Shown here one piece after another: positions 5,847-39,211 of a DNA stretch of 64,000 nt. Every line of letters begins with the position of its first letter. Position 1 is the first letter of the stretch. The translations under genes and the position numbers were made by a program. Origin of the DNA: an uncultured archaeon (GTDB lineage: Archaea > Iainarchaeota > Iainarchaeia > Iainarchaeales > GCA-2688035); assembly GCA_964354805.1 (NCBI GenBank), contig CAYHBD010000042.1, positions 18,038 through 82,037 on the forward strand, written 5' to 3'. The notes beneath the pieces were generated by a model. It ran no database searches, was not told the origin of the DNA, and was given only the letters and a program-made list of their open reading frames with translations.

Positions 5847-6227
5847 CTACCTTGTTGCTGCGGCAATTTTCGCACCCCCTGTCATAGTTTGTTGGTTGGG
5901 CTTTTGTTTTGCAGAGCAAAACTCTTTTTTCCCAAGGCTTTTGCACTGTAGTGCAAAAGGCTTTTGTTTTGCAAACGGCAATTCTTTTGCTTCCAGCGCT
6001 ACAGGCGCAGTGCTGCTTTGCTCTATTCTGATGCATTTGCCCCTTGGGATAATTGTAGGCCTGCTGTTGCTGTTTTCAATTACCATCAGGTTGAATGAGT
6101 CGAAATCGAAGAATTTGCCTTCTTTGAATGAAACTGTGTTGGCTGTGTCGTTGTAGAAAACGCTTATCTCTTTTCCAAGTATTTCAAACAGCAGCTTGTC
6201 CTCCTTTTTGCCGTTCATTGCCCGCAT
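5847..6227 (-). CDS. Sm/LSm-like small protein, paralog 2, with an aberrant C-terminal tail
   Basis: The core MNGKKEDKLLFEILGKEISVFYNDTANTVSFKEGKFFDFDSFNLMVIENSNSRPTIIPRGKCIRIE is collinear with the upstream 74-aa paralog. The pattern resembles Sm1/Sm2 (G.l..fD..mNl.l.......ir...I..I). The track start at 6353 overlaps the upstream gene; ATG 6227 or 6218 fit the paralog's N-terminus. The ~55 aa tail crosses a palindromic element. Confidence 0.5.
   Translation of the reverse strand: MRAMNGKKEDKLLFEILGKEISVFYNDTANTVSFKEGKFFDFDSFNLMVIENSNSRPTIIPRGKCIRIEQSSTAPVALEAKELPFAKQKPFALQCKSLGKKEFCSAKQKPNQQTMTGGAKIAAATR
5925..5963 (-). repeat. palindromic element family A, copy 1
   Basis: Minus-strand reading: AAGCCTTTTGCACTACAGTGCAAAAGCCTTGGGAAAAAA. 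It lies in the 3' tail of ORF 5847..6353 and just upstream of the giant gene's start. Confidence 0.8.
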
Positions 6228-6941: not shown

Positions 6942-7847
6942 TCAGCGTAAGTATTCCAGCGTGTTGCTCCAGATGCCCGGGGTCATTGACGGGTCGTAGT
7001 TGAAGTAAACGACTTTTCCAATAAGCAGCCTCTTTTCAACTATTGCCGGGTAATAGGATGCTGTTGCAATGTTTTTGATGTATGCAATTATGTTTCCTGT
7101 TGGCTTTACGTCAAAGGTGATTATTGTCAGCGGCCCGTAAGCAGGGTCTGCCGGCGCTACTTCAATGCCCTCCATTATTTTGCTGTCATAGTCAACCCTG
7201 TGGACTTTTCCTGTTAAAACAATCGGCTGGACGCAGGTTGCCCTGTCGTTCGTGCCAATGTCGCAGTCTACAGGAATAATGTCTCTGAATGTTGCGCCCC
7301 ATCCGATTACGTCTGATGCAACGCCTGTTCCGTAAATTCCGCCGCTCCTGTAAATGCCTGAATCCATTACAACAACCAGCTTTCCGCCTGTTTTAACGTA
7401 ATTTTCAATCGCTTCTCCAAGTGTCCTTGAAACGCTTTTCTGGTAAGGGTTTGCGCCCAAATGCTGGTCAAGCAGAATGACATCGTATTGGGCAAGCTGT
7501 TCCCTTGGTGCAAACTCTAGGCCTGCCGGCTCTTTTATCTGGTAATAAACAAGGTCTCTCTGCGTGTCCAAATCAGACATTAAATGAATGCTCGGCTCTC
7601 CGATTACAAGCATTTTAATCGGGCCCCTGTCCCCCAAAAATGGAATCTGCCATAGGCCGAACCTGTGGCCCAAAAAAGCGGCAATGATAATAATCAAAAT
7701 CAGCGGGATTAATCCCTCGAGGTTTCTTGAAACAATAGAGCGCCTGCCTGATTGAGCAGGCATTGCTTCAGCACCGCCTTCTTCAGGATACATTCTTTCA
7801 ATCACCTTGTCAATTTTTTCCAAAATTGCTTTTAATCTTTTTCCCAA
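6942..7847 (-). CDS. membrane-anchored protein with a Rossmann-like (GATase1/ThuA-like) external domain; start uncertain
   Basis: TM segment LIPLILIIIIAAFLG, then KMLVIGEPS..YDVILLDQ..IENYVKTGGKLVVVMDSG. It has the same architecture as the neighbour 8037..9041. The track start is a TTG inside a palindromic element; the first ATG is at 7793. Confidence 0.55.
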   Translation of the reverse strand: MGKRLKAILEKIDKVIERMYPEEGGAEAMPAQSGRRSIVSRNLEGLIPLILIIIIAAFLGHRFGLWQIPFLGDRGPIKMLVIGEPSIHLMSDLDTQRDLVYYQIKEPAGLEFAPREQLAQYDVILLDQHLGANPYQKSVSRTLGEAIENYVKTGGKLVVVMDSGIYRSGGIYGTGVASDVIGWGATFRDIIPVDCDIGTNDRATCVQPIVLTGKVHRVDYDSKIMEGIEVAPADPAYGPLTIITFDVKPTGNIIAYIKNIATASYYPAIVEKRLLIGKVVYFNYDPSMTPGIWSNTLEYLR

Positions 7848-7875
7848 GGCTTTTTTGCGGAAGCAAAAAAGGCTT
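7838..7875 (-). repeat. palindromic element family A, copy 2
   Basis: Minus-strand reading: AAGCCTTTTTTGCTTCCGCAAAAAAGCCTTGGGAAAAA. It is identical to the ileS and tRNA-Pro(UGG) copies except for the loop. Confidence 0.85.
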
Positions 7876-10461: not shown

Positions 10462-13383
10462 TCATTTCTTTAACTCAATTGAAAAGCTTCTTTCAATCAG
10501 CTTTTCTTTCACTTCTTTCTCAACAATCTGCATTGCGGTGTTTGTCTCTTTTTCAATCCATTTTCTGTTGCCCTGCAAAAAGCTTTTGTCATCGCAGGCA
10601 ACCAGCAGTAGTGCTTTTTGCTGGGGTAGCAGGTTTGCCTGCTTTCTCATCTCCTGAATCCTTCTCCTGAGTTCCTGCAGCTCCCACTCATTCCGCAGCT
10701 GCCCATCGGCATCCAAAAGCAAAAACAGCTTTGCGCCTGCAGCATCAGCCCTTGCATAATTTCCGCTTGGCTCTGCTGTTGCTTCAACAACGCGCTTTAC
10801 ATTGCAGCTGCTTGCAATAACACTGTGCACTTTGCTGAACTGCTTTCCTTTGCCAGAGGCAGACTTTTTCCCAAGGCTTTTTTGCTTTGGCAAAAAAGGC
10901 TTTTTTTCTGTTACAATGACAAGTTCCCTCAAAGGCCAGCGCAGCCGCAGTTTCTGCTGCTCTCTCAAAGAAAGAACAGCCTGGGTTAATTCTTTTGCGG
11001 AATCAAACTGCTTTTCCAGTTCAGGGTCAACCAGTTTTTTTTCAACGGCAGGCAGCTGCCTCAAGTGAATTGACAAGGGCATTTTTCCATTTCGCAAATG
11101 CTGGTAAATGTATTCGGTTATGTGCGGGGTGATTGGGGAAAGCAGCAAAAGCAGGCCGTCAATTACAGCCGACATTGTCTTGTTCACTGCCTGCGCTGTT
11201 TTTCCTTCTGTCCTGCCCCTGATTAATTTAATGTATGTCCTGCTCAAATCCTCTAAAACGAATTGCTCTATTGCTGCAGTTGCCCTGAAAAAATTATAGC
11301 TGTTATAAGCATCTGTTGCTGTTTCAATTAATGAATTCAGTTTGCTCAGAATCCACTTGTCTTCAACCTGCAAGCTAAGGGTGCTGATTTTTTTGCCCTT
11401 TGCAATGTCCAGCTTCAGATACATGTTCGCGTAGTTGAAGCAGTTCCAGAAGATTGAAAAGAAGCGGTGGATGTCCTTGAAGCTGTCCCAGTCAAAGGCA
11501 AAGTCCTCGCCCTTGCTTGTTGCAGTTAGATAATAGCGCAGGTAATCCCTGCTGTGTTTTTCAATTACCTCTTTCGGCTGGACTGCATTGCCCTTGCTTT
11601 TGCTCATTTTCCTTTTCTCAATGTCAAGCACAAGGCCGTGGACTGAAATTGTTTTGAAGGGCGCTTTGTCAAAAGCAATTGTTGAAAGGATTAACTCACT
11701 GTTCCACCATCCCCTAAACTGGTCTGTTCCCTCAAGATTGAGGTCGGCTGGCCAGAAGCGCTTGAACAATGCGCTGCTTGCAGGGAAACCGAGTGCTGCC
11801 CAGCTGCTGACTCCGGAATCAAACCAAACATCCAGAACCTCAGATACTCTGCGCATTTTTGCGCCGCAGCTGCATTTTATTTCCACTGAATCAATTTCCG
11901 GCTTGTGCAATTCCTTTACTTTCTTTCCGCTCAATTTTTGCAGTTCTTTTAAGCTGCCAATTACTTTCTGCTCTTTGCATTTGCCGCACTGCCAGATTGG
12001 AATTGGAGTTCCCCAATAACGGGCCCTTGAAATTGGCCAGTCTCCAATGCTTTCGAGCCAGTTCTGCATCCTGCTCTGCATCCAATCCGGAACCCACTGC
12101 ACTTTGCCGTTCAATTCAATCATTCTTTTCTGAATGCTGCTTATTTTGAAAAACCATTGCGGAACTGAAAGCATGAGCAAAGGATTTTTGCATCTCCAGC
12201 ACAATGGGTAATCGTGCGTGTAAGGGTGCCTGTAAACCAATGCATTTGCTTGCTCCAAATCGGCGATTATTTCCTTGTCCACTTCCCTGCATCTTTTGCC
12301 TGAATACTTTCCTGCTTCAGCTGTCATCAAGCCATTCAATTGCACTGGCGAAATTGCCGGCAGGCCTGCCTTGCTGCCTGCATCAAAGTCCTCTTTTCCA
12401 TGCCCTGGCGCGCTGTGAACCAGGCCTGTTCCTTCTTCAAGATTAACGTACCGCTCGCTTAGAATTACTCTGTAAGCGTTTTTCAGCGGAGGCAATTGCA
12501 GGTGCTTTGCAAGCGGGTTCTCGTACTGCATTCCCTGCAATTCTTTTCCCTTAACTGTTTTTTCAATTGTAAAGCCTGCCTCAATCGCTGCCATCAATTC
12601 CTGCACTTTTTCCTTTGCAATCACCCATGTTTCGCCATTGCTCATTTTTGCAAAAGAGTAATCAAATGCAGGGTGGACCATCACCCCGGTGTTTCCAGGC
12701 AGTGTCCAGGGAGTTGTTGTCCAGACAACGAGGAAAGTGTTCTCTTCTCCTTTCACTTTGAATTTCACAAAAACAGCTTCATCTGTCAGTTTGCTGTACT
12801 CGATTTCATTGAATGCAACTGCTGTTTCGCATCTCGGGCAGACATGCACAGGGTAAAGCCCTTTGTACAGCAGGCCTTTTTCTTCCGCTTTTTTGAAAGT
12901 CCACCAGATTGCCTCAATGTATTCATTGCTCAAAGTGAGATATGGATTCTGCCAGCCCATCCAAACGCCCAAGTCATTGAATTCGTTGTTCATTACATCA
13001 ATGAACTGCGTTGCATACTGCTTGCATTCTTTAATGAATTTCCCCACTCCGTATTGTTCGATGTCCTGCTTTGATTTGAAGCCCAGCTTTTCCTCAACCT
13101 TGTTTTCAATCGGCAATCCATGGCAGTCATAGCCAGGCCTGTCGAAAACATTGCAGCCCTGCATTCTCCTGCTTCTGATTGCAACATCCTTTTGGATCTT
13201 GTTCAAAGCAGTCCCCATGTGGATGTGGCCTGTTGCATAAGGCGGGCCGTCCATGAAATAAAAAGCCTTTTTCTGCTTGCCACTCTGTTTCCTAACCAAG
13301 GCAGGCACTTTCCTTTTTAGCCAGAAGCGTGTTATTTCCTCTTCCTTCTGCCTGCTGTATGGCTCAAGTAATTTTTCGGGCAT
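10462..13383 (-). CDS. ileS: isoleucyl-tRNA synthetase
   Basis: 973 aa. PYATGHIHMGTALNK is the HIGH-type motif and KMSKSKGN the KMSKS motif. An editing-domain-sized insertion and a Zn-finger-like CPRC..C are present. Confidence 0.9.
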   Translation of the reverse strand: MPEKLLEPYSRQKEEEITRFWLKRKVPALVRKQSGKQKKAFYFMDGPPYATGHIHMGTALNKIQKDVAIRSRRMQGCNVFDRPGYDCHGLPIENKVEEKLGFKSKQDIEQYGVGKFIKECKQYATQFIDVMNNEFNDLGVWMGWQNPYLTLSNEYIEAIWWTFKKAEEKGLLYKGLYPVHVCPRCETAVAFNEIEYSKLTDEAVFVKFKVKGEENTFLVVWTTTPWTLPGNTGVMVHPAFDYSFAKMSNGETWVIAKEKVQELMAAIEAGFTIEKTVKGKELQGMQYENPLAKHLQLPPLKNAYRVILSERYVNLEEGTGLVHSAPGHGKEDFDAGSKAGLPAISPVQLNGLMTAEAGKYSGKRCREVDKEIIADLEQANALVYRHPYTHDYPLCWRCKNPLLMLSVPQWFFKISSIQKRMIELNGKVQWVPDWMQSRMQNWLESIGDWPISRARYWGTPIPIWQCGKCKEQKVIGSLKELQKLSGKKVKELHKPEIDSVEIKCSCGAKMRRVSEVLDVWFDSGVSSWAALGFPASSALFKRFWPADLNLEGTDQFRGWWNSELILSTIAFDKAPFKTISVHGLVLDIEKRKMSKSKGNAVQPKEVIEKHSRDYLRYYLTATSKGEDFAFDWDSFKDIHRFFSIFWNCFNYANMYLKLDIAKGKKISTLSLQVEDKWILSKLNSLIETATDAYNSYNFFRATAAIEQFVLEDLSRTYIKLIRGRTEGKTAQAVNKTMSAVIDGLLLLLSPITPHITEYIYQHLRNGKMPLSIHLRQLPAVEKKLVDPELEKQFDSAKELTQAVLSLREQQKLRLRWPLRELVIVTEKKPFLPKQKSLGKKSASGKGKQFSKVHSVIASSCNVKRVVEATAEPSGNYARADAAGAKLFLLLDADGQLRNEWELQELRRRIQEMRKQANLLPQQKALLLVACDDKSFLQGNRKWIEKETNTAMQIVEKEVKEKLIERSFSIELKK
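10865..10902 (-). repeat. palindromic element family A, copy 3 (inside the ileS reading frame)
   Basis: Minus-strand reading: AAGCCTTTTTTGCCAAAGCAAAAAAGCCTTGGGAAAAA. It is translated in frame as KKPFLPKQKSLGKK. Confidence 0.85.
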
Positions 13384-14220: not shown

Positions 14221-14339
14221 TGGGCCCGGAGAGACTCGAACTCTCGACCCTTGGTGCGCTAACAGGGCAACAAGATGCCGAAATGAATTCACTCATCACC
14301 CTGCTATAAGACCAATGCTCTGCCGCTAAGCTACGGGCC
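14221..14339 (-). tRNA. tRNA-Ile (anticodon UAU as read) with a 48-nt intron after position 37
   Basis: Hand fold: GGGCCCG-TA-GCTT-AGCGGCA-GAGC-A-TTGGT-CTTATA[intron 14256..14303]C-ACCAA-GGGTC-GAGAG-TTCGAGT-CTCTC-CGGGCCC-A. All four stems pair. Confidence 0.8.
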
Positions 14340-14340
14340 C

Positions 14341-38532: not shown

Positions 38533-38614
38533 TTTTTTCCTAAGGCTTTTTGCACGCGAAGCTATTTTCCCAAGGCTTTTGCCAACAGGCAAAAGGCTTA
38601 AAGCAAAAAGGCTT
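38533..38614 (-). repeat. palindromic element family A, copies 4 and 5: one element nested in the loop of another
   Basis: Outer (plus-strand reading): ttttttcctAAGGCTTTTTGC..GCAAAAAGGCTT. Inner (38565..38599): ttttcccAAGGCTTTTGCCaacaGGCAAAAGGCTT. Confidence 0.85.
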
Positions 38615-38644
38615 AAATAGTTCAATGACCTTTTTTTTATTGCA

Positions 38645-39211
38645 ATGGTTGAAGAGAAACAGTTGCTGGCTGGTTTTTTGCGCGAGCTGCGCCAGGCTTT
38701 TGAAAAGCCTGACACTTTTGCTTTGCGCGAATTGGGCAACAAGGCTATTGAGGAGGCTGCTTTGCGGAACAGCAGGCACATTGCCAGCATTGCTTTGGTT
38801 GCTTATTGCTTGCATAAGCTGCACAGCAAGCAGCATATTGCAAGGCACAAAAAATGGTTTTCTTTAAGCAGGGAGATTGGGTTGTTTTTGGGCAAAGCAG
38901 CTGATGCCCTGCAGCGGGATGACTTGGCTGCTTTCGAGCAAAACATGCAGAAAGTTATTTCCGGCGTTCAGTCAATTGATCTGCAGCTTGGCAACTATGT
39001 TGAAAGCATTTTTGAGAAAGCAAGGGTAAAGTATGCAAGCACTGCCTACAGTTTGGGGCTTGGTCTGGGCCAGAGTTGCGATTTGACTGGGGCAAGCAAA
39101 AAGGAATTGCTGCGCTATATTGGCTCAACCAGGATGGCTGACAGGGAAGCTGTCACTTTCGGAATAAAAGAAAGGCTGCAGCGCTTGAGGAAAAGAATGC
39201 AGGCGGAGTGA
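38645..39211 (+). CDS. hypothetical helical protein
   Basis: A 188-aa ORF. I recognise no motif. Confidence 0.45.
   Translation: MVEEKQLLAGFLRELRQAFEKPDTFALRELGNKAIEEAALRNSRHIASIALVAYCLHKLHSKQHIARHKKWFSLSREIGLFLGKAADALQRDDLAAFEQNMQKVISGVQSIDLQLGNYVESIFEKARVKYASTAYSLGLGLGQSCDLTGASKKELLRYIGSTRMADREAVTFGIKERLQRLRKRMQAE

Follow-up and report, generated by a model that had tools for sequence, protein, structure and literature searches.

Selfish DNA is thought to be scarce in the reduced genomes of DPANN archaea. In bacteria, REP/BIME elements are imperfect palindromes of about 35 nt, which have a 5′ tetranucleotide of the GT[AG]G type and are mobilised by RAYT (Y1 HUH) transposases, whose genes typically have REPs on their flanks; Rickettsia palindromic elements (RPE) are repeats of 100-150 bp. 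To our knowledge, the gain and movement of archaeal tRNA introns is an open question, and the only spread of such introns that has been described, in Thermoproteales, has no known mechanism. There, near-identical introns are common to many tRNA species within a lineage, which implies a transfer of intron sequence from one tRNA gene to another, as the work of Fujishima et al. (2010) is summarised in PMC4033280.

Here we analysed a hairpin-in-hairpin feature in a stretch of 64,000 nt from an uncultured archaeon of the Iainarchaeota (the whole stretch is called the window below), together with the repeat family to which both of its units belong. The family works most like bacterial REP/BIME and the transposed tRNA introns of Thermoproteales, yet it fails defining tests of each. 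Like REP/BIME, its copies are short, mostly intergenic and non-autonomous, combine a conserved asymmetric flank with a stem mismatch, and occur in tandem or clustered arrays. However, the family is archaeal, it has a TTTTCCC flank (GGGAAAA in RNA sense) and an AAGGCTT foot and no GTAG, its upper stem is hypervariable, copies stand at tRNA splice sites, and no RAYT-like gene was seen near copies within the loci examined. Its core, like the Thermoproteales introns, is common to introns of different tRNA species, but those introns lie at varied non-canonical positions according to the same summary, whereas the family's all lie at 37/38 (PMC4033280). The family also differs from them in belonging to DPANN archaea and in having most of its copies outside tRNAs (intergenic, and once coding).

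Two further comparisons were made. With RPE the family shares the occurrence of a palindromic repeat in frame inside a protein gene, where it adds a stop-free peptide; its unit is shorter, however (37-80 nt), and there is about one clear coding-sequence case among the 127 copies listed. MITEs and IS200/IS605-derived elements (e.g. PATEs) are likewise small and non-autonomous, with hairpin-forming ends, presence/absence polymorphism and occasional nesting. In contrast to MITEs, the unit studied here is asymmetric, consisting of a hairpin and a one-sided tail without terminal inverted repeats, and its flank duplications are 8-22 nt long rather than of fixed length; in contrast to IS200/IS605, it has no conserved 4-5-nt 5′ target and does have duplications. 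A specific 5′ target of the IS200/IS605 kind was rejected on the sequence preceding AAGCC, where positions -1 to -5 are weakly biased (A in 59% at -1), and next to copies there was no sign of a related autonomous IS. A CRISPR or CRISPR-like array was also rejected, since the spacers between units are 12-17 nt long and palindromic and most copies are solitary, whereas CRISPR spacers are unique and about 25 nt or longer.

Structure of the nested feature

The initial annotation had placed one palindromic element in the loop of another at 38533-38614, and both letters and coordinates agreed exactly with our reading, the inner unit lying inside the outer loop. It had further described the arms as palindromic. 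The pairing is real, although it is not perfect: both arm pairs are only 11/12 complementary, because the heptamer AAGGCTT, which occurs four times in direct orientation within the feature, is a direct repeat and not self-complementary. The single opposition in each arm pair is G.G on the plus strand, equivalent to C.C on the minus strand. By chance, four AAGGCTT on one strand within 73 nt would be expected about 2e-5 times, the pattern AGGCTTTT-N(4-26)-AAAAGGC matched five times in the window against 0.06 expected, and folding of the plus strand as DNA recovered the nested shape at -21.6 kcal/mol (z = -4.1). A chance palindrome is ruled out by these three measures.

All parts of the feature are oriented on the minus strand. 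In plus-strand order, it begins with the tail of the outer unit (38533-38541), which reads TTTTTTCCT on plus and AGGAAAAAA in RNA sense, the family consensus being GGGAAAA; the corresponding tail in L104, a 97%-identical relative, has the consensus TTTTTTCCC in place of TTTTTTCCT. The tail-side arm of the outer unit follows (38542-38553, AAGGCTTTTTGC), which is 11/12 complementary to 38603-38614. The linker ACGCGAAGCTA (38554-38564; UAGCUUCGCGU in RNA sense) belongs to the inner unit and represents a degenerate form of hairpin A, a small hairpin that normally follows GGGAAAA in the unit and is common in the family. The inner core (38565-38599; AAGCCUUUUGCCUGUUGGCAAAAGCCUUGGGAAAA in RNA sense) matches the family core exactly and comprises TTTTCCC (38565-38571), AAGGCTTTTGCC (38572-38583), an AACA loop (38584-38587) and GGCAAAAGGCTT (38588-38599). 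Three nucleotides, AAA (38600-38602), are what remains of the outer loop on the other side, and the identical AAA junction is found in L113 and L104. The AAGCC-side arm of the outer unit (GCAAAAAGGCTT, 38603-38614) closes the structure and overlaps the BRE position of the gene at 38645-39211.

Each of the two units can be recognised separately. The inner one is a standard unit, with a hairpin, then GGGAAAA, then a GCUUCGC mini-hairpin in RNA sense; 35-nt units identical to its core are present in L032 and L094, and the nests of L113 and L075 likewise have the GCUUCGC block 3′ of their inner unit. The outer one, too, is a complete member of the family and has a tail of its own; its T5GC/GCA5 stem, which differs from the T4GCC/GGCA4 arms of the inner unit, is known un-nested elsewhere (e.g. 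L041 and L010). A 7-nt arm match of this kind is expected for about 10% of random left/right partners, compared to 71% for true partners. The feature also contains a direct repeat of 16 nt with copies 30 nt apart and one of 12 nt with copies 15 nt apart.

A repeat family of DPANN archaea

A scan with the 25 fixed bases of the core against one genome per prokaryotic species returned at least 103 loci, with at least 127 exact-core copies in at least 24 assemblies. Hosts among the matches listed were nearly all metagenome-assembled genomes of DPANN archaea, mostly Iainarchaeota; other labels among them were Micrarchaeota, Aenigmatarchaeota and Altiarchaeota, with a few probably mis-binned. The window itself is archaeal in character, with intron-containing tRNAs and leaderless TATA-type promoters. 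In RNA sense, which is the minus strand of the window, the unit consists of AAGCC, a variable palindrome, GCCTT and GGGAAAA, usually followed by hairpin A, which is small, variable and often UGCUUCGCA-like. The palindrome has the form T4-8, 2-5 nt, a loop of 2-4 nt, the complement and A4-8, and is highly variable in sequence. Modal unit length was 37 nt among the 127 copies listed. In a subfamily of longer units, about 80 nt in total, a conserved 15-nt block, GTTCGCTTCGCTCAC, is located 24-26 nt after GGGAAAA; this subfamily was found in several genomes (L008, L012, L019, L020, L046, L063, L078, L085, L086 and L092).

Five full copies are present in the window, all on one strand (5927-5963, 7839-7875, 10866-10902, 38565-38599 and 44601-44637). 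The nest contributes its outer unit as well, and a diverged copy lies at 44360-44408. The copy at 5927-5963 belongs to a unit of about 60 nt between 14-nt direct repeats, GGCTTTTGTTTTGC, at 5899-5912 and 5959-5972. Tandem arrays of units are common, with a spacing of 12-17 nt and spacers that are themselves small palindromes, while most copies are solitary. Using an open frame of at least 60 aa on both sides as the criterion for being embedded in an ORF, 115 of the 127 copies listed (about 90%) were not embedded in a long ORF. Orientation relative to neighbouring protein-coding genes was unbiased (22 vs 19), so a strand-specific mRNA signal was rejected, and divergent gene pairs around copies were somewhat under-represented (9/64).

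Across many DPANN lineages the 25-nt core does not vary, and the 112 different stems contained 864 Watson-Crick pairs and 7 single mismatches, 3 of them G.T. Mismatches were too few for wobble-pair asymmetry to serve as a test of the RNA strand, but their near absence is informative in itself. The C.C opposition in the core was never "repaired", and the diverged copy in a tRNA-Pro gene gained the same extra C in both arms. Therefore, the AAGCC(C)TT arms are kept identical to each other and not complementary, giving a two-fold symmetric duplex, and the upper stem behaves as a perfect palindrome at the DNA level. The alternative that a "solo" core served as the pre-insertion target for the palindrome was rejected because solos are rare (3 vs 164).

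As a known RNA family the repeat was likewise rejected: Rfam gave only tRNA in the window, with a best score on the feature of 17 bits against a gathering threshold of 56. Full-text literature searches by topic and by sequence returned no description of the repeat, and the family is apparently undescribed. Viral contigs, searched for the repeat as a possible viral or plasmid vehicle, gave no matches.

Evidence for insertion

The initial annotation took nesting as a signature of active mobility, and this claim was supported by element-free orthologous spacers, by two more window copies that are absent from orthologous sites, by identical units at unrelated loci and by the recurrence of nesting. 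The spacer that holds the nest was element-free in six related loci (L106, L107, L108, L109, L110 and L111), which have the same gene order and whose orthologs of the downstream gene show 55-64% protein identity. The copy at 7806-7875 (core 7839-7875) has a tail and hairpin A, and about 67 nt corresponding to hairpin, tail and hairpin A are absent from the syntenic site in L066. A third copy, at 10858-10911 (core 10866-10902), lies in frame in a class I aminoacyl-tRNA synthetase gene (10462-13383) as a 54-nt insertion encoding 18 aa (TEKKPFLPKQKSLGKKSA), which is absent from the orthologs in L066 and L059. Unit cores are open in six frames, judged from the reading of the core and from six-frame translations, and the synthetase copy, being in frame and open in all frames, therefore needs no splicing.

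A single assembly contained identical 35-37-nt units at 5-6 loci whose flanks are unrelated. At 17 copies, compared to 5.9 in controls, the unit was flanked by direct repeats of 9 nt or more, and the lengths of such repeats ranged between 8 and 22 nt. Downstream of the tail, the 5′ flank also tends to recur in inverted form, a modest enrichment (4.57 vs 3.96 +/- 0.15 nt, z ~4).

Up to 400 nt from copies, in loci totalling about 0.78 Mb, no recurrent protein family indicating mobility was detected, and no transposase, integrase or reverse transcriptase was seen near copies in neighbouring ORFs or by Pfam scan. An adjacent transposase or integrase was rejected, as the only recurrent neighbour cluster consisted of unrelated T2SSE ATPases with LAGLIDADG inteins. 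These genes for type II/IV secretion-type ATPases with LAGLIDADG intein-like domains were observed in L064 (4413-5345), L089 (5610-6266), L002 and L050.

Copies in and next to tRNA genes

Thirty of the 127 copies listed were located within 100 nt of a tRNA gene. Sixteen of the 127 lay inside tRNA introns, all in one orientation (the tRNA opposite to the search-pattern strand), and about 87% of the copies listed were outside tRNA genes. For the 14 intron copies read in detail, AAGCC starts 0-1 nt after position 37, that is, at the canonical 37/38 splice site. Seven tRNA families had a copy at the 5′ end of the intron (Gly, Leu, Ser, Ile, Cys, Ala and Pro), and tRNA-Pro was the commonest intron host (5/14).

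Two tandem tRNA-Pro genes of the window (44300-44448 and 44552-44678, both minus) have introns of 50-74 nt, and both are element-bearing. They were missed by default ARAGORN and by Rfam at the gathering threshold, and were found only by intron-aware ARAGORN and an E-value Rfam scan. The copy at 44601-44637 forms the 5′ part of the intron of the gene at 44552-44678; it begins 1 nt after the 37/38 splice site, and a strict bulge-helix-bulge (BHB) motif is at the expected place. A canonical BHB can be drawn for this gene with UAUGC/GCAUA and UUUG/CAAA and with the bulges GGA and CAA. At the 5′ splice site of the second gene (44300-44448) lies the diverged copy, AAGCCC...GCCCTTGTGGAAAA (44360-44408).

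The BHB motif is a helix-bulge-helix-bulge-helix with both boundaries in 3-nt bulges that are 4 bp apart, and the strict scan placed it correctly in 7 of the 14 intron copies. Outside tRNAs there was no enrichment, with 21 of 105 non-tRNA copies having the motif compared to 16.7 +/- 2.9 in flank-swapped controls, and no BHB motif was found near the nested copy or the synthetase copy. Thus non-tRNA units are not generally spliceable introns, and a BHB intron outside tRNAs was rejected as an explanation.

In the orthologous tRNA-Pro introns of L004 and L087 the core is kept while the stems are quite different, each still being a near-perfect palindrome. The tRNA-Ile(UAU) intron of the window is free of the element, while the 186-nt intron of the orthologous tRNA in L066 contains several copies; the two introns are unrelated, and intron content therefore turns over completely between relatives. 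In the window, this tRNA-Ile(UAU) gene (14221-14340, minus) has an intron (GCAGGGTGATGAGTGAATTC...) that contains a box-C-like GUGAUGA.

Copies were also found at tRNA 3′ ends. About 6 copies start 0-1 nt after the tRNA 3′ end. About 8 others, oriented the opposite way, are found downstream of a tRNA that is intact; a decaying duplicate of the 3′ end of this tRNA, from the T-loop onward, follows them directly, and on their other side is an inverted copy of the T-loop region. The full order, as observed in L071, L032, L080, L060, L001, L064 and L085, is intact tRNA, short hairpin, inverted T-loop copy, antisense element and a decaying 3′-end duplicate of 17-22 nt. The arrangement resembles the scar of an att-type integration in miniature, or a duplication produced by a staggered cut. 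It is tandemly repeated in L071. A second conserved small hairpin, with the loop GAGCCCAAGCGA and an ATC/GAT-like stem in which tandem G.A pairs are possible, accompanies the 3′-end duplications in L032, L060, L080 and L102. At positions 5724-5800 of L073, an element and its downstream complement CGCCGGCGA form a strict BHB-like motif, whose predicted cleavage coincides with the mature tRNA 3′ end. We also observed that the conserved tail together with the preceding arm, GCCUUGGGAAAA (compare 5927-5963 and 44601-44637), resembles the anticodon loop and intron start of tRNA-Pro, GCUUUGGGAAAGCC. This likeness may hint at the origin of the element.

Recurrence and amplification of the nest

Nests were found elsewhere in L075, from the genome loci, and in L112 and L113, from a metagenome scan for a complete unit with a second right arm within 20 nt. 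L113 shows the composite of the window again, with 89% identity over 82 nt and unrelated flanks, and with paired changes in the stems (outer T6GC/GCA6, inner TTTTGC-GAA-GCAAAA). The nests of L075 and L112 are built differently and have outer arms that match or largely match.

In L104, the 97%-identical relative, the orthologous locus contains three units in tandem, compared to one in the window; their order is nest, linker hairpin, partial copy, linker and nest. The partial unit contains the inner element and the outer right arm, without the outer left arm. This repeat array covers 423-650 of L104 and 1-30 of L105, and the L105 assembly breaks inside it. In L104, the array produced a spurious 58-aa gene call. 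From the composite in L113 and the amplification in L104 it follows that the nest propagates as a unit, and most likely it began as a loop insertion that was later propagated and amplified in this form.

Comparison of this spacer between relatives, which the initial annotation had proposed in terms of empty, single and nested sites, thus yielded empty and nested states and a tripled one in L104, but not the single un-nested state. No relative with the outer unit lacking the inner one was found at this locus, which counts against the insertion reading, and a search of metagenomes for strain variants via the unique left flank of the spacer found none. The suggestion that loops are preferred targets received suggestive support from the four nests among about 300 copies, from the tRNA anticodon loop and from flank complementarity (z ~4); on the other side, neither of the two non-tRNA empty sites that were inspected, in the synthetase gene and the 7839 spacer, is a hairpin loop.

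Promoter of the downstream gene

The T-runs that follow the upstream gene lie on one side of the composite and the TATA box of the gene downstream (38645-39211) on the other, and T-runs are present on both strands at the feature. The downstream gene encodes a 188-aa protein, for which an exact-sequence look-up gave no record. A TATA-like box, TTAAATAG, is located at 38613-38620 on the plus strand, 24 nt upstream of the ATG at 38645, corresponding to a leaderless-type promoter. Relative to the ATG, GCAAAAAGGCTTAAATAG of the window has the position that is taken by GCAAAGGATTAAATAG or CAAAAGGATTAAATAT in element-free orthologs, and the promoter of the 188-aa gene (BRE and TTAAATAG, window 38603-38620) is conserved as GCAAAGGATTAAATAG in L108 (~2950-2975) and L109 (~2465-2480). 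The outer right arm therefore takes the place of the ancestral BRE region and is similar to it, and since it resembles the element-free promoter sequence, some of this arm could be ancestral sequence or the result of conversion. The resemblance may reflect landing of the element on a similar sequence, conversion of that sequence, or coincidence. A general promoter motif was rejected, because other promoters of the window lack AAGGCTT and are unlike this one.

Discussion

The feature at 38533-38614 probably represents nested units of a palindromic DNA repeat of DPANN archaea that is short, non-autonomous and able to insert. According to this reading, a standard unit would have been copied into the apical loop of a resident unit, and the composite, with its outer ends intact, would afterwards have been propagated and amplified as one. 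Copying would act on DNA hairpins or cruciforms, and would be carried out by a structure-specific enzyme encoded in trans or by template switching during replication. Single-stranded loops, such as hairpin apices and the tRNA anticodon loop, would be favoured, and copying would often leave a direct duplication of the flank of 8-22 nt and an inverted copy of the 5′ flank. A core that is invariant across lineages labelled as different phyla is unusual for a purely selfish repeat, which suggests a conserved host partner. Further observations stand against the mobile-repeat reading. The fixed orientation in introns and the exact start at the 5′ splice site are unexplained by random DNA insertion, and the compensatory changes in L113 would also fit a structured functional element.

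The latter point leads to the question of whether the composite is a conserved functional structure, either an RNA processing or stability signal or a bidirectional terminator or promoter module, whose nested form is native and kept by selection. The initial annotation had set insertion against a conserved functional hairpin, and had named conservation of the composite with compensatory changes as the observation that would argue for a structured RNA. Such changes were in part found, in both stems but at the unrelated locus L113, and with the invariant 25-nt core and the fixed position and orientation of intron copies at tRNA splice sites, the contrast is not supported as it was worded. The T-runs on both strands, the outer arm at the BRE position beside the TATA box and the slight deficit of divergent gene pairs are also in keeping with a functional module. 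Against it, the six related loci have no element in the orthologous spacer, copy number varies between 97%-identical relatives, orientation to flanking protein-coding genes is unbiased, G.U wobble is essentially absent from the 112 different stems, one copy lies in frame within a coding sequence, and the promoters of the window generally lack such a motif, with no Rfam match to add to the case. We regard this explanation as unlikely. Also unlikely, in our view, is an origin of the left-left-right-right order by rearrangement of a tandem array, through unequal crossing-over or slippage between AAGGCTT and TTTTCCC repeats and not by loop insertion. Tandem arrays are common, L104 shows the locus recombining, including a partial unit without the outer left arm, the feature holds the 16-nt and 12-nt direct repeats, and AAGGCTT-TTTGCaCGCGAAGCtA-TTTTCCC resembles a normal junction of unit, hairpin A and next unit. 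However, the two outer arms match while being distinct from the inner ones (for unrelated halves, such a match has a chance of about 10%), the outer unit has its own tail, L113 has the same layout with co-varying outer arms (T6GC/GCA6), and the differently built nests of L075 and L112 also have outer arms that match wholly or largely.

A different route would be spread at the RNA level, with the units as mobile BHB introns that are excised by the tRNA splicing endonuclease, move by reverse splicing or ligation and reverse transcription, and stay silent by splicing. The intron copies speak for this, as they are always in sense (16 of the 127 listed), start 0-1 nt from the 37/38 site in all 14 that were read in detail and in seven tRNA families, and have a strict BHB at the right place in half of these; moreover, the region downstream tends to complement the 5′ flank, as an exon-pairing segment would, and about 6 copies begin 0-1 nt after a tRNA 3′ end. 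Non-tRNA copies, however, are not enriched in BHB motifs, and copies show no preferred orientation relative to protein-coding genes. Wobble pairs are missing from the stems, which form perfect palindromes in DNA, the synthetase copy needs no splicing, the direct repeats at the flanks speak for an event at the DNA level, and a reverse transcriptase was not seen near copies. We therefore consider RNA-level spread very unlikely.

The reading as a mobile DNA repeat can be extended, with low confidence, to the origin of tRNA introns. In this speculative version, the repeat would be a mobile hairpin derived from a tRNA intron, and copying would write an inverted 5′ flank at the far end of the insert. 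If so, an inverted flank in the anticodon loop would provide the exon-pairing strand of a bulge-helix-bulge, and a copy that landed in a tRNA would become a spliceable intron, while outside tRNAs the element would persist as an inert DNA palindrome. This would also explain the likeness of the tail CUUGGGAAAA to the anticodon loop and intron start of tRNA-Pro, CUUUGGGAAAG, and would give a concrete mechanism for the gain of archaeal tRNA introns.

On the practical side, these repeats break assemblies (L105), cause spurious ORF calls (L104) and hide tRNA genes from default annotation. While short palindromic mobile repeats are already known, a link to tRNA introns is unusual. One family here connects the canonical 5′ ends of tRNA introns in at least seven tRNA families, polymorphic intergenic palindromes and an in-frame insertion in an essential gene, and its many natural filled and empty sites make the insertion mechanism and any role of the splicing machinery directly testable.
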